From positions 1 through 24,167 of the forward strand of contig JAYUCN010000609.1 in assembly GCA_043740335.1 (NCBI GenBank): a stretch of 24,167 nucleotides of DNA. Reading direction: 5' to 3'. This stretch comes from Planctomycetota bacterium. Its GTDB lineage: Bacteria > Planctomycetota > UBA1135 > UBA2386. The position numbers were made by a program, and so were the translations under genes. Under the pieces are notes generated by a model that was not told where the DNA came from, did no database searches, and saw only the letters and a program-made list of their open reading frames with translations. Shown piece after piece: positions 2,405-13,001 of the stretch; within the stretch, counting starts at the first letter, position 1, and each line of letters begins with the position of its first letter.

Positions 2405-3772
2405 ATGAAGGCACCGTTCCAGATCGCACTCTCCCTCGCCCTTCTGGCCCTCCCAGCCTTTGGCCAGACCGCCACGCAACTGAAGCAGGAACTGCGCAAC
2501 AAGGAAACTGCGGCGAAGAAGGATCCTGAGGCTCTGTTCGAAGTGGGAAAGTGGGCCAACGAGAAAGCGCTGGCTGCGGACGCCAAGCGCATCTACCAAG
2601 AGGTGCTCAAGCTCAAGCCGGATCACGAAGGAGCCAATCTTGCGGTCGGCAATGCACTCGTTGAAGGCAAGTGGCTCTCCGCCAAGGAAGCCGATGCGTT
2701 GCGAAAGAAGGCGATGGCTGCCGAGTATTCGGCGAAGGGCTTCGTCGATGTCGCGGGCGTGTGGGTCGAGAAGGAGAAGGTCGCCGACGCCAAGCGTGGC
2801 ATCTTCCACCACGAAGGGGACCAAGTGACCAAGGAAGAGAAACTGGCCCTCATGAATGGCAGGGTCCGCCACCCCGAGACGGGCGAGTTGATCGACGCCC
2901 AATACCTCGAGAAGGCCAAGAACAAGTACTTCCCGATCGGCTCGGAGGGTCGCTGGGTCGACGAGAAGGAAGCGGACACACACCACAGTGACATCAAGCG
3001 GCCGTGGAACGTCCGGACTTCGTACTGCACGGTCAGGAGCACCTTGGCGATCGCGAAGCTCCAAGAGTTCAAGCAGCACGTCGACCGCGGCTACGAGATG
3101 GTGCGACCGCTGCTCGGCTCCGCGACGCCCAGTCCAGCCAACCGACCGGTCGTGGTGGTTGCAGCGAGCCGCATCGAGTTCAAGGACTACGGCGCCCAGC
3201 TGGGGGATGAAACGTCGTCCTACGGGGCGTTCCTTGCCGACCCAGGGCGTCTCGAGAAGATCCCCATGCAAGGCGAGGTTCGCGTCGCAGTGTGTGACAA
3301 CGACAAGGAGTGGGGCACGAGATTCGCGCGCCACGCAGCAGGAATCGCCTACGTCTCTGGCGTCTCGGCCGACATCGGCGCCGACCTACCGCTGTGGTTC
3401 GTGCATGCCTTCGGCAGCTACGCAAGCCGCTTCGAGAACGACCACGACGCTGGATGGTTCGGGAAGCAACACGTTCAGAAGGGGGGGGTCCGCAACCTCA
3501 AGGGCTTCTTCTCGAGCTTCGCGATCAACATGGAAATGGAGTCGAAGGACATCGACTACAACATCTTCCAGGCGGGCTTGATGATCGCCTTCGCCGCCAA
3601 GGGCGGTGACGCCAAGGTCACCGAGGCCCTGCAAGCGGTGACGGCGGCACTGTCGGAGGGAAAGAAGGGTGGACCCGACAAGGCCATCGTCAAGTTTCAA
3701 GCCGCTCTCATCGAAGCCGAGCCAAAGATCGTCACCTACCTGCAGCAGCTGATCGCCAAGGCCCCCTCCTGA
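2405..3772 (+). CDS. Secreted hypothetical protein: TPR-like N-terminus, short G-x-W repeats, degenerate DUF1570/peptidase-MA-like C-terminal domain
   Basis: Sec signal MKAPFQIALSLALLALPAFG; typical GC3-biased codon use; LPLWFVHAFGSY resembles the PxWxxEGxAxY motif of gluzincin-like families. Confidence 0.8.
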   Translation: MKAPFQIALSLALLALPAFGQTATQLKQELRNKETAAKKDPEALFEVGKWANEKALAADAKRIYQEVLKLKPDHEGANLAVGNALVEGKWLSAKEADALRKKAMAAEYSAKGFVDVAGVWVEKEKVADAKRGIFHHEGDQVTKEEKLALMNGRVRHPETGELIDAQYLEKAKNKYFPIGSEGRWVDEKEADTHHSDIKRPWNVRTSYCTVRSTLAIAKLQEFKQHVDRGYEMVRPLLGSATPSPANRPVVVVAASRIEFKDYGAQLGDETSSYGAFLADPGRLEKIPMQGEVRVAVCDNDKEWGTRFARHAAGIAYVSGVSADIGADLPLWFVHAFGSYASRFENDHDAGWFGKQHVQKGGVRNLKGFFSSFAINMEMESKDIDYNIFQAGLMIAFAAKGGDAKVTEALQAVTAALSEGKKGGPDKAIVKFQAALIEAEPKIVTYLQQLIAKAPS

Positions 3773-3878: not shown

Positions 3879-5747
3879 ATGATGCTGTTCCATCTCCCCG
3901 CCCTGGCATCCATCGCGCTGCTCGCGGTGCCAGCCGCCGCTCAGGGCTCGATCCTGCCCTACCTTCCCCAGAAAACAGTGTTCGTGGTCTCGGCGCCCGA
4001 CCTGCCCATGTCGATGGCCGAGTTCGCGAAGATGCCGGTCGCGAAGATGTGGGCCGAGGAGGAAGTGCAGAACTTCCTGGCCGACGTGAAGGAACTCGTC
4101 GCCAAGCAGTTCGCGAAGGGAATGGCGCAGGCGAAGGAGATGCATGCACAGGGGGCGCTGCCGATCGATCCGGAGCAGCTGCTCAATCTCCGCGTGAACG
4201 GCGTCACCTTCGCAGTCACCCAGCTCGAGGTGACCATGGGCGACTTCGGGCCGCTGCCGAAGATCGGAGTCGTGCTGCACCTCGACTTCGGTGAGTCGGC
4301 ACCGACGTGGAACTCGCTGATCCAGATGGGCCTCGGCATGATGGAGGCCAACGCGGGCGACGAACTGGTCAAGAAGGAGGCGAAGATCGGCGACGTCCAG
4401 ATGCTCTCGTTCGAAGCGAACGATGCGCGCGGCATCGAGATGGGTCTCCACATCGCGATGGTGCCGGGCGGTGTCCTGATCGGCACCCTGGCCGACGACG
4501 TGCGCGGCATCGTCGAGAACATGCAGAAGAAGACGCCGGTGCTGACGGCTTCCGAGCAATACAAGGCGATCGCGAAGCACCTGACCACCGACGGTGCCGA
4601 GTGTGAGATGTTCGTCCGCCTCGACCCGCTCGTCGAGTTCGGCTTGAGCGCATTGCGCCTCGGTGCCTCTCTGAACGAAGAGATGAAGGTGGTCGACATG
4701 GACGGGGTCGAACGCGCCATCCAGGCCATGGGGCTGCGCAACCTGGGTTCCTCGGGCTCCACGTACAACTACCTGGACGGCAAGTGCGTCAGCCGAAGCC
4801 ATAGCGCCCAATCCGGTGGAGCTGCCACGGCAGCAGTCAAGACCATCGACATGTCGTTCCTCAAGTGGGTGCCGAAGGATGCCGTCGGCTTCAGCGCTTC
4901 CACGCTGAACGTCGCGAGCATCTACGACACCTTGCTCGCCGGTTTGCAGGCCTACGATCCGGAGTTCGCCAAGCAGGCGGTCGGCCACTTGGCGGAGATC
5001 GAGAAGCAGCTCGGGTTCAACGTGCACGACGACCTCTTCGGCTCGTTGGGTGACCACTTGATCACCTGGTCGATGCCCATGGGCACGATCTCGTCCGCGC
5101 CGGAAGTTGCCATCCTCATGAAGGTGAACAACGAAGACAAGTTGGTGAAAGTGCTGAAGAGTCTCGCTCAGCTCAGCAATGGCCTGGTCGAAATCGAGGA
5201 GGGCGAAAAGCGCGGCCTGAAGGCCTACCAGATCCGCATCAACTTCGACCCCACCCAGGGCATGGGCGGCATGAACCCACTGGACATGTTCCAGCCGACG
5301 TTCGCCTTCAAGGCTGGCTATATGGTCCTCGGTTTCTCGGCCAGCGATGTCAAGCGCGTGTTCCAGCGCATGGACCGCGAAGACGACCCCAAGGGTGACA
5401 TCCGCAGCAACAAGGAGTTCACCGCCATCGCCAGCTCGCTGCCGAGTGGCATCGACAGCGTCTCCTTCACGGACTGCAAGGCGCAATTCGAAAGCTATTA
5501 CCAGATCGCCACGGGTCTGCTGGCCTTCGTGCCAATGGGTGAAGACGTGCCGATCGACATGTCCTTGCTGCCAGACTCGGGCACCTTGACCAAGCACCTG
5601 TTCGGCTCGTTGAGCTACAGCAAGACGGACGGCATGGGGTCGGAATCGGTGAGCGTCGGCCCGTTCGGCCCAGAGATGGGTCTTGCCGTTGTCGCCGCAG
5701 TCGCAGGCGCCCTGGCGACTGTTGGCTGGATGCGTCGGGGCTTCTGA
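3879..5747 (+). CDS. Secreted/membrane-anchored hypothetical protein (DUF3352-like, two similar halves)
   Basis: Signal peptide ending PAAAQ; similar domain starts ILPYLPQKTVFVVSAPDL and FLKWVPKDAVGFSAS; C-terminal hydrophobic helix followed by RR. Family assignment is by resemblance only. Confidence 0.75.
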   Translation: MMLFHLPALASIALLAVPAAAQGSILPYLPQKTVFVVSAPDLPMSMAEFAKMPVAKMWAEEEVQNFLADVKELVAKQFAKGMAQAKEMHAQGALPIDPEQLLNLRVNGVTFAVTQLEVTMGDFGPLPKIGVVLHLDFGESAPTWNSLIQMGLGMMEANAGDELVKKEAKIGDVQMLSFEANDARGIEMGLHIAMVPGGVLIGTLADDVRGIVENMQKKTPVLTASEQYKAIAKHLTTDGAECEMFVRLDPLVEFGLSALRLGASLNEEMKVVDMDGVERAIQAMGLRNLGSSGSTYNYLDGKCVSRSHSAQSGGAATAAVKTIDMSFLKWVPKDAVGFSASTLNVASIYDTLLAGLQAYDPEFAKQAVGHLAEIEKQLGFNVHDDLFGSLGDHLITWSMPMGTISSAPEVAILMKVNNEDKLVKVLKSLAQLSNGLVEIEEGEKRGLKAYQIRINFDPTQGMGGMNPLDMFQPTFAFKAGYMVLGFSASDVKRVFQRMDREDDPKGDIRSNKEFTAIASSLPSGIDSVSFTDCKAQFESYYQIATGLLAFVPMGEDVPIDMSLLPDSGTLTKHLFGSLSYSKTDGMGSESVSVGPFGPEMGLAVVAAVAGALATVGWMRRGF

Positions 5748-5776
5748 CCAAGACTCTCTTGGCCGCGGGTCGACCC
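5748..5776. terminator. Possible terminator hairpins between convergent genes
   Basis: CCAAGA-CTC-TCTTGG (5748-5762) and palindrome GGGTCGACCC (5767-5776) in the 34-nt gap between two convergent stops; no clear U tract. Confidence 0.3.
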
Positions 5777-5781
5777 TTCGT

Positions 5782-6936
5782 TCAGCACAACCCGGCGGCG
5801 AGGTAGTCGGAGCCGACGCGATCGGCCATGAGCAGACCGGCGGACGTGAGCCGGAGCATGCGCCCGTCGAAGTCGACCCAGCCGGCGCATTGGTGGGTTG
5901 CCGTGACCTCGGCGAACAGTCGGCGGGCTGGCACCTCGAGCCGTGCCTCGATGGCCTGAAGATCGATGCCCTCGGTGCGTCGGATGCCGAGCCAGACGGC
6001 CTCGCTGGCGCGCTGCGCCGGCCGCAGCGTCTCGGCAGAGCCCGCGCACGGTTCACCCGCCAGCGCAGCTGCGGCCCATGCCTCGACCGCCTTCAGGTTC
6101 GTCGTTCGCATGCCGCAACGGTGGCTCGCGGCCCCAGGCCCGACTCCCGTGTAGTCGCCTTGCAGCCAGTAGTGATCGTTGTGCAAACAGGGGCCGCCGC
6201 GCCCCGCGAAGTTGCTGACCTCGTACGCGGTGAAGCCCGCAGCCGCGAGGCGCTCGCGTGTGTGCAGGAACATTTCACGATCGTCTTCCTGATCGTTGGG
6301 TGACACCTGCTCGCGTTGCAGATCGCGGTATAGGCGCGTGCCGGGCTCGAAGGTGAGGTTGTAGCAAGACAGATGGTCGGGCATCAGCGCGAGCGCCCGC
6401 TCGAGATCGGCACGCCACTCCGCCGGAGTCTCCTTCGGGATGCCGAACATCAGATCGAGGTTGATGTTCTGGAAGCCTGCCTCGCGGAGCAGACGGAATG
6501 CATCCTCAGCGCGCTCGGCCGAGTGTGCGCGATCGAGGAACCGGAGGTGGTGCGTATGGAAACTCTGCACACCGATGCTCATGCGCGTCACGCCGGACTC
6601 ACGTGCCATCTGCGCTTTCTCGAGCGTGAGGCTCTCGGGATTGGCCTCCATGGTCACTTCGTGACTTTCGCGCAACGGCACGTGTGACGCGAGGATCGAA
6701 AACAGCCGCTGCAACCGCTCCGGGTCGAGCAGGCTCGGTGTGCCGCCGCCGAGAAAGACCGAGACCGGCGTTCCACCATGCCAGCAACGGCGCAGCTCCG
6801 CATCCAGCGCATCGAGGAAGCGGTCGTGCACGGTGCGATCGTCGTCGACATACGAGTTGAAGTCGCAGTAGCCGCACTTCACGACGCAGAAGGGCACGTG
6901 CACGTAGAGCGACGTGCCTTTGCCCGATGCGATCAT
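5782..6936 (-). CDS. hemW: Radical SAM heme chaperone HemW (HemN-like)
   Basis: SLYVHVPFCVVKCGYCDFNS (CxxxCxxC), GGGTPS, EVTMEANPE, RMSIGVQSF, NINLDLMFGIP, YEVSNFA, HNDHYW, GVGPGAAS. Start ATG 6936 (alternative 6960). Confidence 0.9.
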   Translation of the reverse strand: MIASGKGTSLYVHVPFCVVKCGYCDFNSYVDDDRTVHDRFLDALDAELRRCWHGGTPVSVFLGGGTPSLLDPERLQRLFSILASHVPLRESHEVTMEANPESLTLEKAQMARESGVTRMSIGVQSFHTHHLRFLDRAHSAERAEDAFRLLREAGFQNINLDLMFGIPKETPAEWRADLERALALMPDHLSCYNLTFEPGTRLYRDLQREQVSPNDQEDDREMFLHTRERLAAAGFTAYEVSNFAGRGGPCLHNDHYWLQGDYTGVGPGAASHRCGMRTTNLKAVEAWAAAALAGEPCAGSAETLRPAQRASEAVWLGIRRTEGIDLQAIEARLEVPARRLFAEVTATHQCAGWVDFDGRMLRLTSAGLLMADRVGSDYLAAGLC

Positions 6937-6985
6937 GGCTGATCGAATCGACACCCGCACAGGCTACGCCGCCCGACCGCCAGCG

Positions 6986-7846
6986 TCACTGCTCGCGAGC
7001 CAATCGGCGACGCGAGCGGCAAGCAACCCGCTCTTCCCCGAATTCGCGGGACATGATGCCGCACAGCTTCTCGAGGGCGTGCTGCTCCATCTGGCGGACG
7101 CGTTCCCGCGTGAGCCCGAACCGCTTGCCGATCGCTTTCAGCGTCATGGGTTCGCCCGAGCCGAGCCCGAATCGCAGCTTCAGGATCCGGGACTCGCGCG
7201 TGTCCAGCATATCGAGCAACTCCCGCATCCGCCCGATCTCCATCGCCGACAGGATCTGCGCTTCGGGCGTCTTGACGCGGGTGTCTTCGATGGCATCGGC
7301 GAACGTGGCAGCTGAGTCTTCACTCATGGAGTGAGTCGGCTGCGAGTTCGCGAGCACCGTGTCGCGCACGACGTTCCAGTTGTTCTCGGGCAGCTGCAGC
7401 TCCTCGGCGATCTCTGCCGACGTAGCCTGACGGCCGAGACGATAGTTCAACTCCATCGACGTCGCCTTCCAGCGCGAGACGATCTCCGACATGTACGAAG
7501 GCACGCGCACGGTCTTGACGGTGTTGACCAGGGAGCGGCGGATGCCCTGCTTGATCCACCACGTCGCGTAGGTCGAGAAGCGGCATCCCGCATCCGGGTC
7601 GAACTTCTCCACGGCCTTCATGAGCCCGATGTTGCCCTCCTCGATCAGGTCCATGAACGACAACCCGCGATTCGTGTAGTTCTTGGCGATCGAGACCACG
7701 AGGCGCAGGTTGGCGCGAATCATGTGCTCGCGTGCCGCCAGGTCGCCCCGTTGGATGCGTCGGGCGAGTTCGATCTCCTGTTCCGCGGTCAGCAGTGGCA
7801 CTTCGTTGATGTCGGCCAGATACGTGTCGAGACCTTGGTCCCGCAT
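6986..7846 (-). CDS. RNA polymerase sigma-70 factor, RpoD/RpoS family, lacking region 1.1 (group-2-like), 286 aa
   Basis: Region 1.2 [16 protein letters not shown]; 2.1-2.4 [41 protein letters not shown]; 4.2 [26 protein letters not shown] upstream of ATG 7846; the 8074 start in the ORF track is an artefactual extension. Confidence 0.93.
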
Positions 7847-7977: not shown

Positions 7978-8169
7978 CTACCCGACGAACGGGTAGAGGA
8001 AGGGTGCGACGCCCGTGGCACCGAACACGATGCCCATCAGCAGGAACACGACGAGGATCGGCGTCAGCCACCACATCCTGTTCTCGGCCATGAAGGCGAC
8101 GAACGCGGCGATCAATCCACGTTCCTTCTGGCCGGCGGCCCGCCTGAACTCATCGCCTGGCTCGTTCAC
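7978..8169 (-). CDS. DUF5989/SxtK-like small membrane protein, copy 2 (63 aa, GTG start)
   Basis: [63 protein letters not shown]; family-like WWLxP and APFxY motifs; GAGAG upstream of GTG 8169. Confidence 0.7.
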
Positions 8170-8191
8170 GCCGTCTCTCGTGGTTGCCCGC

Positions 8192-8404
8192 TCACACGAA
8201 CGAGTAGAGGAAGGGCGCGACGCCCGTGGCACCGAGCACGAGCAGGATTCCCAGCAGCAGGAACACGATCATGATCGGTGTCAGCCACCACATCTTGTTC
8301 TCGGCCATGAAGGCGACGAACTCGGCGACGAGTCCACGTTCTTCCTGTCTCGCGGCCTGCAGGAACTCGTCCTTCTGCGGATCTTTGTGCATCTGTTCGC
8401 TCAT
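8192..8404 (-). CDS. DUF5989/SxtK-like small membrane protein, copy 1 (70 aa)
   Basis: [70 protein letters not shown]; starts 7 nt after the SxtJ-like stop. Confidence 0.85.
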   Translation of the reverse strand: MSEQMHKDPQKDEFLQAARQEERGLVAEFVAFMAENKMWWLTPIMIVFLLLGILLVLGATGVAPFLYSFV

Positions 8405-8411
8405 GGTCGGC

Positions 8412-8858
8412 TCAGTATAGCTTGAAGTAGCTCGACGGGTCGCGGGCAGGACCACGATCGTGCCAGTAGCTGGCCTGATCCGGCTCGAGCTTCCGTCTCA
8501 ACGCATCGCGGCCGACGAGGCGGAACACGAGCGCGATGGGCGTCATCACGAGGTAGAAGATCGTGGCCATCAGCACGTGCGAAACCACGAAGCCGATGGG
8601 GTACGCGACGAGGGTCAGCAGCTGGAACACCAGCCGCGGAATCAGCTTCTCGAGCAGTGCGCCGAAGGCACCGAGCGCTTCCTTCAGCAGCAGCTCGACA
8701 ACCGCGATGAGCACGCCAACACCGATCAGCACGAGCACCCATGGCAGGGGGAGATCGTGCCGCCACGCCAGGAAGCAGGCGATCGCAGGAAAGAGGATCA
8801 GCGACGCCCAGGCGAACTGACGCAGGAGGCGCCGGTCGGGATCGAGGTTGAGCTTCAT
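8412..8858 (-). CDS. SxtJ-family membrane protein (148 aa)
   Basis: C-terminal part of track ORF 8412-10232 from ATG 8858: LRQFAW, hydrophobic helices, PIGFVVSHVLMATIFYLVMTPIALVFRLVGRDAL...SYWHDR; 5 nt after the carbamoyltransferase stop. Confidence 0.85.
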   Translation of the reverse strand: MKLNLDPDRRLLRQFAWASLILFPAIACFLAWRHDLPLPWVLVLIGVGVLIAVVELLLKEALGAFGALLEKLIPRLVFQLLTLVAYPIGFVVSHVLMATIFYLVMTPIALVFRLVGRDALRRKLEPDQASYWHDRGPARDPSSYFKLY

Positions 8859-8863
8859 GGGCG

Positions 8864-10696
8864 TCAGTCCAGGGAGAATCCCGCCAGGTACTTCTCGCGA
8901 TCGATCACGGGCAGGTTCTTCTGCGCGGCGCGCCGGATCACGAAGTTCTCGAGCACGAGCACGTCCATCTCGGTGCCGAGGAAGCACCGCAGCGCATCCT
9001 GCGGTGTGCAGACGATCGGTTCGCCGCGCACGTTGAAGCTCGTGTTGATGAGCACGGGACAACCGGTCCGTGCCTTGAACCGGCGCATGAGGCTCGCGAG
9101 GCGCGGATTGCGCTCCGCGTCCACGGTCTGCAAGCGCGCCGAGAAGTCGACGTGGGTGACGGCGGGGATGACCGAACGCAGTTGCTTGAGCTTGTCGAGC
9201 CCACGCGCCGTCCCGTCCACGGGCTTGCGCTTGTCGTCGCGCACCGGAGCGACGACGAGCATGTAGGGACTGTCGTGCTGCGGCGCGATCTGGAAGAACT
9301 CGCTCGCATCTTCGCGCAGCACGATCGGCGCGAACGGCCGGAACGACTCGCGGAACTTGATCTTCAGGTTCATCACGCTCTGCATCTTCGACGACCTGGC
9401 GTCGCCGAGGATGCTGCGCGCACCGAGCGCGCGCGGACCGAACTCCATCGGTCCCTGGAACCAGCCGATCACGTTCTCCTGTTCGATGAGCTCCGCCACA
9501 CGATCGGCGAGCTGCGCTTCGCTGCCGCAGTCCTCGTAGACGACGTTCTGGCTGTCGAGGAATACGCGGATGTCCTTCGACTCGTAGCGCGGTCCGAGCA
9601 GGCTGCCATGTTGTGTGTCGTTGGGGGACACGCGGCGCAGCTTGCCGAGCAGGTGGTGCCAAAGGAACTGTGCGGCACCGAGCGCACCGCCCGCGTCGCC
9701 CGCGGCCGGCTGGATCCAGAGGTTGTCGAACGGTCCTTCGCGCAGGATGACGCCATTGCCCACGCAATTGAGCGCGACGCCGCCGGCGAGGCACAGGTTC
9801 TTCTTGCCCGTCACCGCGTGCGCATGGCGCGCCGTGCGCAGCATGACTTCCTCGGTCACCTTCTGGATCGATGCCGCCAGATCCATGTGGCGCTGTTCGA
9901 GCGGCGACTCCGGCCGACGCGGCGGGCCGCCGAGGAGTGCGTGGAACTTCGCGCTCGTCATCGTCAGACCCTGGCAGTAGTTGAAGTACGACAGGTCCAG
10001 GCGGTAGCTGCCGTCGTCGCGCAGGTCGATGAGGTGATCGCGGATCTGCCGCTCGAAGCGCGGCTCGCCGTAGGGTGCGAGCCCCATGAGCTTGTACTCG
10101 CCGCTGTTGACCTTGAAGCCGCAGTAGAAGGTGAAGGCCGAGTAGAGGAGACCGAGCGAGTGGGGGAAGCGGATCTCTTTCAGGAGTCGCAGCTTGTTGC
10201 CCTCGCCGACGCCGAGCGACGTCGTCGCCCATTCGCCGACTCCGTCCATCGTCACGATCGCGGCCTCCTCGAACGGCGACGGATAGAACGCGGACGCAGC
10301 GTGGCTCTCGTGGTGCTCCGGGAAGACGTAGCGGTTTTTCGGTTTGGTGCCGAGGCTCCGGTCGAGCAAACGCCGCATGTTGAGCTTCTCGCCGAGCAGG
10401 ATGGGCACTGATTTGGCGAACGACCTGAGGCCGAGCGGCGCGTAGCCGAGGAAGGTCTCGATGACGCGGTGGAACTTCAGGATCGGCTTGTCATAGAAGG
10501 CGACGAAGTCGACGTCCGCCGCACGGATGCCGGCACGAACGAGGCAGAACTCGACGGCGCGGAACGGGAACGCTGCGTCGTGCTTCTTGCGCGTGAACCG
10601 TTCTTCCTGGGCCGCCCCGACGATCTCGCCGTCGCGCAACAGGCACGCGGCGGAGTCGTGGTAGAAAGCCGAAATGCCGAGGACGTAGGCGGTCAT
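8864..10696 (-). CDS. O-carbamoyltransferase, NodU/CmcH/SxtI family (610 aa)
   Basis: LGISAFYHDSAA, AQEERFTRKKHD, HHESHAASAF, DGVGE, SGEYKLMGLAPYG, LAGGVALNCVGN, MEFGPRALGARSIL, LINTSFNVRGEPIV. Start ATG 10696. Confidence 0.95.
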   Translation of the reverse strand: MTAYVLGISAFYHDSAACLLRDGEIVGAAQEERFTRKKHDAAFPFRAVEFCLVRAGIRAADVDFVAFYDKPILKFHRVIETFLGYAPLGLRSFAKSVPILLGEKLNMRRLLDRSLGTKPKNRYVFPEHHESHAASAFYPSPFEEAAIVTMDGVGEWATTSLGVGEGNKLRLLKEIRFPHSLGLLYSAFTFYCGFKVNSGEYKLMGLAPYGEPRFERQIRDHLIDLRDDGSYRLDLSYFNYCQGLTMTSAKFHALLGGPPRRPESPLEQRHMDLAASIQKVTEEVMLRTARHAHAVTGKKNLCLAGGVALNCVGNGVILREGPFDNLWIQPAAGDAGGALGAAQFLWHHLLGKLRRVSPNDTQHGSLLGPRYESKDIRVFLDSQNVVYEDCGSEAQLADRVAELIEQENVIGWFQGPMEFGPRALGARSILGDARSSKMQSVMNLKIKFRESFRPFAPIVLREDASEFFQIAPQHDSPYMLVVAPVRDDKRKPVDGTARGLDKLKQLRSVIPAVTHVDFSARLQTVDAERNPRLASLMRRFKARTGCPVLINTSFNVRGEPIVCTPQDALRCFLGTEMDVLVLENFVIRRAAQKNLPVIDREKYLAGFSLD

Positions 10697-10849
10697 GGGG
10701 GACTGAGGCCAGACGCCGCAGTTCACTCTCTGAGAATGGCGGCGCAGTATGCGTCGGTAGCAGCATCGTGGCACGCAAAAGTACGCTCGTGCCCCACCCC
10801 TGGAAGACCTTGGGTGTCGCAGGGACAGCGGGCAAGTTAGTCTTCGGCG

Positions 10850-12007
10850 ATGCAACGTACGGCGTCGACGAAGCGGAGAGCCGGTCCCCGCTTACTGCTC
10901 GCGCTGCTGGCGACAGCCGTCGCCCTCGTCCTTTGCGAAGTTGCCGTTCGTCTCTTCGTGCCGGTTGAAGCCCCGCAGCTTGGTCAGGTGAGCTACGCGA
11001 ACGGTGATGGCACGCAGATCACCCGTGAGGACGCCTTCGCTCGAGGACTCATCGTTCCCGTCGAAAAGACCAAGACCCCGCGAGACCGTCTGATGGTCGC
11101 GCCGGCACAGAAGTTCTTCCTCTGCTACACCGATGCGAAGAAGCTGAGGCGCGCATGGTTCGATGACCAGGGGCGGGTTCGGATCCGCATCAATCGCTTC
11201 GGTCTGCGCGAACGTGACGAGATCACCCAAGAGAAACCTGTCGGACAGAAACGCATCGTGTGCGTCGGTGACTCATTCACCTTCGGATGGGGGATACCGG
11301 AGGAAGACGGCTGGGTGAGGCGGCTGGAGGATGAACTGCGCAAGGCAGGGTCGGATGTGCGCACGGTAAACTGCGGCTGGGCAGGCACGGTCTGCGTCGA
11401 CGAGTACTGGTGGGGCCTGCAGCACCGCTTCCATGTGTTCGGACCCGACGCGGTCATCGTCACCATCTGCTTGAACGACCTCATCCCGAGCAGCGGGCTC
11501 AACCTGATCGACCCGCAGAGGACCACGGGCATCCGCATTCTCGACCTGCTGCTCGGTGCAGTGGGTCGCAGCCCGCTTGACCTCGATCCGTCCCGCGACT
11601 GGGTGCAGGAACTTCTCGACTTGCCTAGGCAGCAAGCCATCGACTCACGTCTGGCAGGTCCGGACAAGCCGTTCGAAGCAATGTGGTCGCAGGGGGTACC
11701 CCAGGCTTCCCTGCGCGCCATGAAGAGCTGGTGCGACGAACGCAAGATTCCGCTGATGGTCATCTTGTGGCCGTTCCTCCAAGGGCTTGGCGAAGGTCGT
11801 TTCTACCCATTCCGCAAGCTCCACGAGCTCGTCGCCGCGGACTGCAAGGCGGCCGCGATTCCTTACCTCGACGTGATGCCTGCGCTCGCCGGTACCCGCG
11901 ACGAGGACCTGTGGGTGACGCCGGCCGATCCCCATCCGAACCCGCTCGCGCAAAGCCTTGCGCTGCCGAAGATCTTTCAGTTCGTGACGACCCACTGCCG
12001 CTTTTGA
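10850..12007 (+). CDS. Membrane-anchored SGNH/GDSL-family protein
   Basis: N-terminal basic residues plus TM (RLLLALLATAVALVLCEVAVRLF); block I VGDSFTFG (Ser codon 11273-11275); CLND; C-terminal DPHPN (11927-11941). Confidence 0.88.
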   Translation: MQRTASTKRRAGPRLLLALLATAVALVLCEVAVRLFVPVEAPQLGQVSYANGDGTQITREDAFARGLIVPVEKTKTPRDRLMVAPAQKFFLCYTDAKKLRRAWFDDQGRVRIRINRFGLRERDEITQEKPVGQKRIVCVGDSFTFGWGIPEEDGWVRRLEDELRKAGSDVRTVNCGWAGTVCVDEYWWGLQHRFHVFGPDAVIVTICLNDLIPSSGLNLIDPQRTTGIRILDLLLGAVGRSPLDLDPSRDWVQELLDLPRQQAIDSRLAGPDKPFEAMWSQGVPQASLRAMKSWCDERKIPLMVILWPFLQGLGEGRFYPFRKLHELVAADCKAAAIPYLDVMPALAGTRDEDLWVTPADPHPNPLAQSLALPKIFQFVTTHCRF

Positions 12008-12009
12008 GC

Positions 12010-12037
12010 AGCAGCCCATCGCGCCGATGGGTGCTTT
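12010..12037 (+). terminator. Probable intrinsic terminator after the SGNH gene
   Basis: AGCA(G)CCCATCG-CGC-CGATGGG-TGCT hairpin just after stop 12007, followed by a short T run. Confidence 0.4.
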
Positions 12038-12123
12038 GGAGCCAGACCGAAGCAGCGCTGAAGCAGACACACACGGATCGCATCGCCTTGGCCCCTTCAA
12101 GGTCGATTCTCAGAACTCTGAAA

Positions 12124-12152
12124 TTGACCCGGCGGCTACGTTCTTTTACAGG
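12124..12152 (+). promoter_or_regulatory. Possible sigma-70 promoter of the act operon
   Basis: TTGACC at 12124-12129, 17-nt spacer, TACAGG at 12147-12152, in the AT-richer intergenic region; the -10 match is weak. Confidence 0.2.
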
Positions 12153-12323
12153 GGTTGCCCTTTGGGCTAGCCCGCTCGTGCTCTCCCAACTTTGGTTCCC
12201 GCCACAGCCAATCGGTATGGCGGCTGTCGGGAGGCAGGTTGGGGCACCTGACCCGACGCGCACGCAGGGCTATCCGTAATTCCAGCGACCGCAAACTGTC
12301 CCCACCCGCGGAGGGGATCCACC

Positions 12324-13001
12324 TTGACCGTCCTGTTCCCGAAGTGGACCAACAAGTTGCCTGCCTTGCTCGCGCTCGGCGCGGCGGCGACCGGTCTGTT
12401 CGTGGTGTTCGTGGTGAACTTCTGGTTCTCGCCAAAGCACACGGATGTCGGCTACCAACCGTACCAGCCCATTCCCTACAGCCACAAGCTCCATGCGGGC
12501 ACGCTGGGCATGGACTGCCGCTACTGCCACCGTCTCGTCGAAGAAGGTCCGCATGCGACGGTGCCCGACGCGCAGACCTGCATGGGCTGCCACTTGAAAG
12601 TGAAGCCGGACAGCATCTCGCTCGAGCCGCTGCGACTGGCGCTGCCAGTCGGCCAGCCCGAAGGCCCGCCAATCCAGTGGATCAAGGTGCACCTGTTGCC
12701 CCAGCACGCGTACTTCAACCACGCCGTGCACATCCGGGTCGGAGTCGGGTGCGTGAGCTGCCACGGTCGCATCGACGAAATGGAGATCGTGCGGCAGGCC
12801 GAGCCCCTCAGCATGGGTTGGTGCATCGAGTGCCACCGCGATCCCACGTCCCACCTTCGCCCCGCTGCTGTCGCGGTGACCAAGATGGACTGGGTTGCCG
12901 ACCCTGCCAGCATCACCGCCGCCAAGCGGCGGCTCGAGTGGCAGGGTGAAACCCGGCCCGAGCTGAACCCCCCGACCTACTGCTCGGCATGCCACCGATG
13001 A
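12324..13001 (+). CDS. actA: Alternative complex III pentaheme cytochrome c subunit ActA
   Basis: N-terminal TM, YQPYQPIPYSHKLHAG, five CxxCH motifs (CRYCH, CMGCH, CVSCH, CIECH, CSACH). TTG start with GGAGGGG SD at 12310-12316. Confidence 0.93.
   Translation: MTVLFPKWTNKLPALLALGAAATGLFVVFVVNFWFSPKHTDVGYQPYQPIPYSHKLHAGTLGMDCRYCHRLVEEGPHATVPDAQTCMGCHLKVKPDSISLEPLRLALPVGQPEGPPIQWIKVHLLPQHAYFNHAVHIRVGVGCVSCHGRIDEMEIVRQAEPLSMGWCIECHRDPTSHLRPAAVAVTKMDWVADPASITAAKRRLEWQGETRPELNPPTYCSACHR

Follow-up and report, generated by a model that had tools for sequence, protein, structure and literature searches.

Can carbamoyl groups be carried across a bacterial inner membrane by the kind of tyrosine shuttle that serves acyl groups? 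The question is raised by a 24,167-nucleotide stretch of Planctomycetota DNA (contig JAYUCN010000609.1 of assembly GCA_043740335.1; hereafter the window), where the gene for a NodU/CmcH/TobZ-family carbamoyltransferase lies beside genes for an SxtJ-family membrane protein, two DUF5989 microproteins with a single transmembrane (TM) helix each, and a membrane-anchored SGNH protein. A sequence-only reading of this DNA had proposed that the microprotein tails are DltX-like carriers and that the cassette moves a carbamoyl group from the cytoplasm to an extracytoplasmic glycan, with the SGNH protein acting as a transferase rather than a hydrolase. Our analysis revealed that the DUF5989 family ends in an invariant and predicted extracytoplasmic tyrosine, set in the motif that DltX and bacterial MBOAT proteins use for acyl transfer. 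On balance we favor an SGNH-directed shuttle-type role for this tail, and we advance the complete carbamoyl relay as a proposal about which we have slightly more doubt than confidence.

An invariant tyrosine at the end of the DUF5989 microproteins

Both window microproteins belong to DUF5989: the Pfam model PF19451, whose cut-off is 27, scores copy 1 at 57.9 bits and copy 2 at 39.9 bits. An exhaustive search resolved the family into 1,737 clusters at 50% identity. It is present in 185 of 401 Planctomycetota genomes and has at least 494 confirmed matches among species-representative genomes, distributed over many phyla. A literature search found DUF5989 mentioned in no searchable paper.

The carrier proposal supposed a conserved tyrosine, and this was borne out. 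Alignment of 109 diverse representatives revealed only three invariant columns, W40, P43 and Y67, all of which are kept by both window copies; conservation is 90% or more at A63, P64, F65 and F70. The resulting family pattern is present in both copies: the helix begins with WW-x-x-P, and the C-terminal tail contains AP-F-x-Y. The consensus tail is AAPFIYTLF-COOH, in which FIYTLF is an exact FXYXXF at the extreme C-terminus. The tyrosine occupies position -4 in 143 of 150 cluster representatives, in all 120 close homologs and in 123 of 126 open reading frames (ORFs) from the fetched loci described below. Three of the seven exceptional representatives have frameshift-like, unrelated ends that lack a tail tyrosine; all other exceptions keep the tyrosine, 1–4 residues out of register. 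Lysine and arginine are concentrated ahead of the TM helix, with a mean of 2.5 in the preceding 15 residues compared with 0.007 in the uncharged tail of about 11 residues that follows it, and DUF5989 is therefore predicted to adopt an N-in/C-out topology.

The two window tails end as had been read from the sequence, but their register required a correction. Copy 1 ends in FLYSFV, in which the FXYXX register is intact (Tyr at -4) and only the last Phe is replaced, by Val; 21 of the 120 close homologs have this tail. In copy 2 the tail is FLYPFVG, and one extra C-terminal Gly shifts the tyrosine to -5. Among the sequences sampled the PFVG ending is unique to copy 2, which may therefore be decaying or specialized. 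At the DNA level the copies align over positions 7978–8404 with 86% mean column identity; copy 2 lacks six N-terminal codons and two TM codons, and has one codon more at its C-terminus (FVG versus FV). Other genomes from the window's family have a single DUF5989 gene. The two genes are a recent tandem duplicate.

Comparison of DUF5989 with DltX and MBOAT tails

The FXYXXF sequence at an extracytoplasmic C-terminus has been described as the 'acyl-shuttle' motif of DltX and bacterial MBOATs, in which the tyrosine takes D-alanine (DltX) or acetyl (PatA) and then hands it to the serine of an SGNH partner (PMC12148441; PMC13653941). For comparison we assembled 25 non-redundant DltX sequences from metagenomes, found by the pattern FIYNEF-stop, so that the motif is fixed by construction in this set. 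Alignment of the DUF5989 and DltX profiles with hhalign placed helix and motif in register with a score of 26.9 (P 4.7e-5), compared with 17.0 for the best of 150 column shuffles. Most of this signal comes from the TM helix and the motif. The profile similarity is modest: helix and motif are in register and the score exceeds the shuffle null, but the probability is only 68%, and the score falls once the motif is removed (considered below). As a separate comparison we used the C-terminal 70 residues of five MBOATs from the DUF5989 loci, all of which end F-x-Y-[FY]-x-F. These aligned end to end with DUF5989, with a score of 25.4 (P 1.1e-4).

The description of the TM helix and FxY tail as DltX-like stands as regards the motif, the invariant tyrosine and the predicted topology; it does not extend to family membership, as no window protein matched Pfam DltX at E <= 0.01. 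DltX was likewise absent when the PDB was searched with the DUF5989 profile; the matches, to DsbB and a light-harvesting protein, reflect chance similarity of TM segments. DUF5989 and DltX share architecture and motif, whether by descent or by convergence, and the window microproteins are filed here as members of DUF5989, not of the DltX family. They probably work like DltX.

The likeness to the Dlt pathway covers a single-TM microprotein of about 45–70 residues with an extracytoplasmic C-terminal F-x-Y-x-x-F and an invariant tyrosine, and an SGNH protein (DltD in one case, the window SGNH protein in the other) anchored by an N-terminal TM helix. The differences are equally clear. The Dlt pathway consists of DltA, DltC, the MBOAT DltB, DltX and DltD, whereas the cassette contains neither an MBOAT nor a carrier protein nor an adenylating ligase, and no carrier-protein or ligase genes adjoin it. 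Its donor enzyme is instead a carbamoyltransferase, SxtJ is an additional membrane protein, and the host is diderm. PatA/PatB and AlgI/AlgJ/AlgX, the MBOAT-SGNH systems that acetylate peptidoglycan and alginate, share with DUF5989 the same terminal motif after an amphipathic helix and a TM helix, but in those systems the MBOAT carries the motif on its own chain, and acetyl-CoA serves as donor.

A planctomycete copy of the sxtIJKL-type module

The cyanobacterial saxitoxin cluster contains a block of sxtI (carbamoyltransferase), sxtJ (405 bp), sxtK (165 bp) and sxtL (GDSL lipase) (PMC2679770, PMC2684587), and these four genes have been traced to non-toxic Oscillatoriales relatives. Reviews list the functions of SxtJ and SxtK as unknown. 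The window has all four gene types within 4 kb; its proteins match Pfam families named after or typified by Sxt proteins, and the SGNH protein is likened to SxtL by gene type. The arrangement differs in that the window SGNH gene is divergent and not downstream, two copies of the microprotein gene are present and the surroundings of the cassette encode no toxin pathway. We consider it almost certain that the locus is a planctomycete copy of a widespread sxtIJKL-type module.

To describe how the module is composed elsewhere, we used loci centered on DUF5989 and extending up to 10 kb on each side, 40 from Planctomycetota and 80 from species-representative genomes. The latter set spans more than 10 phyla and is biased by its 19-sequence query alignment to tails ending APFIYTLF. 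Linkage was counted in the 92 loci whose flanks both reach 5 kb or more. A carbamoyltransferase homolog lies within 3 kb of DUF5989 in 81 of the 92 and SxtJ in 79 (~87%). The expected co-occurrence of SGNH genes with the cassette was also found, and the clustering is strong and specific: a homolog of the window SGNH protein lies within 5 kb in 33 of the 92 loci (36%), usually as part of the operon, with only four more at 5–10 kb, and some proteins have SGNH fused to DUF5989. Linked SGNH genes are mostly close: 33 of 43 lie no more than 500 bp from a cassette gene, and among these 33, 26 are co-directional. They often stand between cassette genes, in orders that are shuffled across loci, and the loci concerned come from Planctomycetota, Myxococcota, Acidobacteriota, Chloroflexota, Bacteroidota, Proteobacteria and Desulfobacterota. 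All-against-all clustering of the locus neighbors revealed no further widely shared neighbor. The SGNH gene is a frequent, not an obligatory, fourth member of the cassette.

Natural fusions join the same parts. SGNH-4TM-DUF5989 proteins are encoded at L071:9904-11490 (minus strand) and L067:7935-10082 (plus strand), in the order N-terminal anchor, SGNH domain, three helices, DUF5989 amphipathic helix and TM helix, and FIYTLF tail. Eleven such fusions (P0273–P0283) all have precomputed matches to PF13472 and PF19451, and six also match PF16822 (AlgX). Because four helices separate them, the SGNH domain and the tail are expected on the same side of the membrane. We also observed extra DUF5989 genes, for products of 42–44 aa, near the genes for these fusions.

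A second kind of fusion is represented by P0259, a 182-residue protein in which SxtJ (tail SYYRQS) reads through its stop and, by way of what was once the intergenic spacer, continues into DUF5989. Pfam detected no second domain in the longer DUF5989 proteins; a custom SxtJ profile then revealed this fusion. P0259 agrees with the SxtJ C-terminus and the DUF5989 N-terminus both being cytoplasmic. Clusters of about 185 residues in the ESM Atlas, from Acidobacteriota and Binatota, hint at a family of SxtJ-DUF5989 fusions (score 0.77, a lead only).

Some DUF5989 genes occur outside the cassette. In L055:9265-9897 and L059:10053-10700, which belong to one planctomycete family, the orphan gene adjoins a cytidylyltransferase-like gene and not a carbamoyltransferase or SxtJ gene. 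The neighbors of orphan DUF5989 genes (cytidylyltransferase, GT2, rhomboid protease, tRNA ligase, transposase) have no common theme except in L064, a locus with an MBOAT that is described below.

The membrane-anchored SGNH protein

The window SGNH protein matches Lipase_GDSL_2 with 46.7 bits, and its catalytic blocks are intact as had been claimed, with G140-D141-S142 and D360-P-H362 conserved across 48 relatives. In these 48 sequences G140, S142 and H362 are invariant, and D141, N174, G176, G179, N209, D210 and D360 are at least 90% conserved; block V has the form D-x-H, not D-x-x-H. Orthologs stand beside the cassette in L048, L069 and L070, and within the clade of the window the SGNH orthologs are on the same contigs as the microprotein gene.

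An AlphaFold2 model of the protein (m906b6518b4c3; predicted local distance difference test score, pLDDT, 93.7) has an N-terminal helix at residues 7–36, and the overall order is N-terminal TM helix, β-rich extension and SGNH domain. The best structural match is CgnD (PDB 8a2n), with a Z-score of 19.4 over 235 residues that include the N-terminal β-rich extension. CgnD is a soluble SGNH hydrolase, from the cluster for crocagin, a ribosomal peptide that is modified after translation (RiPP), and slowly cleaves a leader peptide, whereas the window protein is membrane-anchored; the two are 15% identical and do not match at the sequence level. In the portion of the crocagin report drawn on here (PMC10070186), the cluster is stated to encode a carbamoyltransferase, CgnI, and no SxtJ- or SxtK-like genes are reported for it. 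The presence of CgnI beside CgnD may or may not be meaningful for the pairing in the window. Fold searches with two models returned CgnD and generic esterases, matches that do not tell a transferase from a hydrolase, and SxtL was not among the Swiss-Prot matches to the SGNH model. In a sequence search of the PDB generic esterases were best and AlgJ and AlgX weak; the Pfam model of AlgX did not match the window protein.

The carbamoyltransferase and SxtJ

The window carbamoyltransferase matches Carbam_trans_N with 320.5 bits (profile positions 2–345 of 346) and Carbam_trans_C with 240.2 bits (positions 1–170 of 170), which corresponds to the architecture of a Kae1-like N domain and a YrdC-like C domain; the NCBIfam NodU match is partial. 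As had been noted, it has no signal peptide, and no hydrophobic segment is found at the N-terminus. The enzyme has the same two-domain make-up as TobZ, NodU and CmcH, and enzymes of the TobZ/NodU family make carbamoyl-adenylate from carbamoyl phosphate and ATP. It differs in its setting, as to our knowledge the characterized members act on soluble small-molecule substrates and have no membrane partners.

SxtJ matches PF19588 marginally (26 bits against a cut-off of 24.4) and ends in SSYFKLY, in agreement with the sequence-only reading. A jackhmmer family of 110 homologs has a conserved core of a P.G...TP hairpin, R..G.D and SYW. After the SYW, these homologs (L038–L157) end in the C-terminal tail Y-F-[RK]-Q-[FY]-COOH, with Tyr at -5 in 89 of the 110, Gln at -2 in 86 and Phe or Tyr at -1 in 97. 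The window tail is YFKLY, as in five other family members. It is encoded at positions 8412–8470 and is the second tyrosine-bearing terminal peptide of the cassette. Positive flanking charges place this tail in the cytoplasm. A role as a docking or acceptor peptide for the carbamoyltransferase is plausible.

MBOAT genes near the cassette and in the window genome

No MBOAT gene is present in the window, as the sequence-only reading had stated, and the single MBOAT detected in the genome sits on another contig (L276, contig C846, positions 5033-7700). That protein ends in FIYYQF and is followed by an AlgX-family protein (133 bits); the two are a classical MBOAT-SGNH-like pair apart from the window. 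Other genomes have MBOATs closer to the cassette. In L070, a genome of the window's own family, positions 4666-7406 encode an MBOAT ending in FAYFRF and then an SGNH protein 51% identical to that of the window, the pair being divergent from the carbamoyltransferase. In L064 (positions 9899-12673) a DUF5989 gene stands directly upstream of genes for an MBOAT ending in FVYFQF and an SGNH-like protein, with no carbamoyltransferase or SxtJ gene within 10 kb of DUF5989. MBOATs also occur near the cassette in L049, L151 and probably L124. Loci L064 and L070 tie the cassette to acyl-shuttle systems, and they also feed the rival explanation in which the SGNH protein serves an MBOAT.

A proposed carbamoyl relay and its alternatives

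In the relay that we propose, the cytoplasmic carbamoyltransferase would make carbamoyl-adenylate from carbamoyl phosphate and ATP. SxtJ would hold the enzyme on the membrane, its tail being a candidate docking or acceptor peptide. The carbamoyl group would then pass to the invariant tyrosine in the periplasmic F-x-Y-x-x-[F/V] tail of DUF5989, which would do for carbamoyl what DltX, or the C-terminal end of a PatA/AlgI-type MBOAT, does for acyl groups. In the last step, the membrane-anchored SGNH protein would accept the carbamoyl group on Ser142 and deliver it to an acceptor outside the cytoplasm, probably a glycan or lipid of the envelope, whose genes are not among the neighbors. Four elements of this scheme are inferences: that the tyrosine is carbamoylated, that the group crosses the membrane through SxtJ, that the SGNH protein is a transferase, and what the acceptor is.

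A number of observations weigh against this relay or against the tail reading that underlies it. Both window tails are off the consensus, copy 1 by the Val in place of the last Phe and copy 2 by its extra Gly. Without the motif the DltX comparison falls to a score of 16.8, at the top of the shuffle null, and profiles of this kind would not separate convergence from homology. Neither an MBOAT nor any other known conduit is part of the cassette; SxtJ is a small protein, and passage of a carbamoyl group through it is hypothetical. Transfer of the TobZ type takes place in an active site that is deep and cytoplasmic, and a periplasmic tyrosine is difficult to square with this. Block II of the window SGNH protein is canonical (N174-x-G176-x-x-G179), and in the structural ranking ordinary GDSL esterases reach Z-scores of 14–17 compared with 12.9 for PatB (rank 38) and 11.9 for OafB. 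In PatB and OatA block II is atypical, with the Gly replaced (PMC12148441). The window protein therefore departs from the PatB/OatA type in both block II and fold, which makes a PatB-type enzyme less likely and leaves the likelihood of transfer as such where it was. In the saxitoxin work SxtL itself was proposed to act as a decarbamoylase rather than as a transferase. In some 60% of cassettes no SGNH gene of this family occurs within 10 kb, so the core trio can apparently do without such a neighbor. In an AlphaFold model of a natural SGNH-DUF5989 fusion the SGNH domain is well folded and the last 12 residues have pLDDT < 50, and docking of the tail is thus neither supported nor excluded.

Much of this evidence would suit an arrangement in which SxtJ and DUF5989 do no more than tether or orient the carbamoyltransferase at the membrane's inner face, its substrate there being a lipid-linked or membrane-associated precursor. 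The conserved tails would then be protein-protein contact peptides and the SGNH protein a periplasmic hydrolase that removes or trims O-carbamoyl or O-acyl groups, as might be read from the fold and blocks that it has in common with ordinary GDSL esterases, the annotation of SxtL as 'decarbamoylation', the many cassettes with no linked SGNH gene, the fusion tail that is not confidently docked and the lack of a membrane conduit. However, a plain anchor needs no invariant tyrosine at a fixed distance from a periplasmic free C-terminus. The tail is in register with a motif of proven catalytic role in two systems with SGNH partners, and SGNH-DUF5989 fusions exist. We consider this scaffold with an editing esterase rather unlikely. 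Another explanation would separate the genes into two neighboring systems, the window SGNH protein being the partner of an MBOAT acyl (acetyl) transferase, DUF5989 perhaps serving MBOAT-type acylation, and the carbamoyltransferase and SxtJ acting independently on the same polymer, so that neither the tyrosine nor the SGNH protein would carry carbamoyl. The MBOAT that precedes the close SGNH relative in L070, those near the cassette in L049, L151 and probably L124, the one directly downstream of the orphan DUF5989 gene in L064, and the existence of an MBOAT elsewhere in the window genome all fit this explanation. Yet an MBOAT is found in only 4 of the 92 loci compared with 81 for the carbamoyltransferase, and the MBOATs near the cassette need no microprotein because they carry an FXYXXF tail of their own. 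Moreover, the MBOAT of the window genome already adjoins an AlgX-type partner, and the SGNH gene recurs between cassette genes, in shuffled orders, in many phyla. Two independent systems are, in our judgment, improbable.

The relay can also be drawn in a stricter, MBOAT-independent form with two tyrosines, in which carbamoyl would pass from the Y-F-R-Q-F tail of SxtJ to the F-I-Y-T-L-F tail of DUF5989, then to the SGNH serine and on to extracytoplasmic glycans. Since saxitoxin clusters carry the same four genes, this version would place saxitoxin carbamoylation outside the cytoplasm as well. We think it unlikely in this specific form.

Our literature search found no paper that links carbamoylation with the acyl-shuttle motif or proposes a carbamoyl relay. 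SxtJ and SxtK have lacked an assigned function since the saxitoxin cluster was described, and the shuttle idea gives them a testable role. DUF5989 is moreover a very common family, widespread across phyla yet unstudied. If the relay is true, it would be a third route for decorating envelope polymers outside the cytoplasm, beside the MBOAT-SGNH and AT3-SGNH routes and with different chemistry. Surface glycans would then bear O-carbamoyl groups far more often than is recognized, and the final steps of saxitoxin biosynthesis would have to be re-examined for their topology.

Layout of the cassette in the window

The source genome is a Planctomycetota metagenome-assembled genome of 982 contigs that is 71% complete. 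All five genes that the sequence-only reading had listed were recovered by Pfam searches and ORF coordinates at the positions it had given (Table 1). The four minus-strand genes form an operon, since the gaps from the carbamoyltransferase stop to the SxtJ start, from SxtJ to copy 1 and from copy 1 to copy 2 are only 5, 7 and 22 nt. The divergent intergenic region is presumably the site of the promoters. A scan of this region for the sigma-70 consensus, which is not informative for Planctomycetota, found none, and promoter and terminator scanning gave no signal above chance.

Table 1. Features of the cassette and their positions in the window
Feature	Coordinates	Strand	Basis
DUF5989 microprotein copy 2, 63 aa, GTG start, tail APFLYPFVG	7978..8169	-	PF19451
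DUF5989 (SxtK-like) microprotein copy 1, 70 aa: amphipathic helix, one TM helix, tail APFLYSFV-COOH	8192..8404	-	PF19451
SxtJ-family small membrane protein, 148 aa, ~4 TM helices, C-terminal tail predicted cytoplasmic	8412..8858	-	PF19588
NodU/CmcH/TobZ-family O-carbamoyltransferase, cytoplasmic, 610 aa	8864..10696	-	Pfam
Divergent intergenic region, carbamoyltransferase/SGNH, 153 nt	10697..10849	.	Coordinates of the two start codons
SGNH/GDSL protein, 385 aa, membrane-anchored, SGNH domain predicted periplasmic	10850..12007	+	Lipase_GDSL_2

The window contains no glycan locus. Between positions 1 and 5747 it has long ORFs at 2-934, 949-1431, 1288-2529, 2405-3772 and 3879-5747 that have no Pfam match at E <= 0.001, and some of these five may be shadow ORFs of high-GC DNA. 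The cassette itself has an alternative complex III operon on one flank; on the other are genes for a sigma-70 factor and a HemN-like radical SAM protein.

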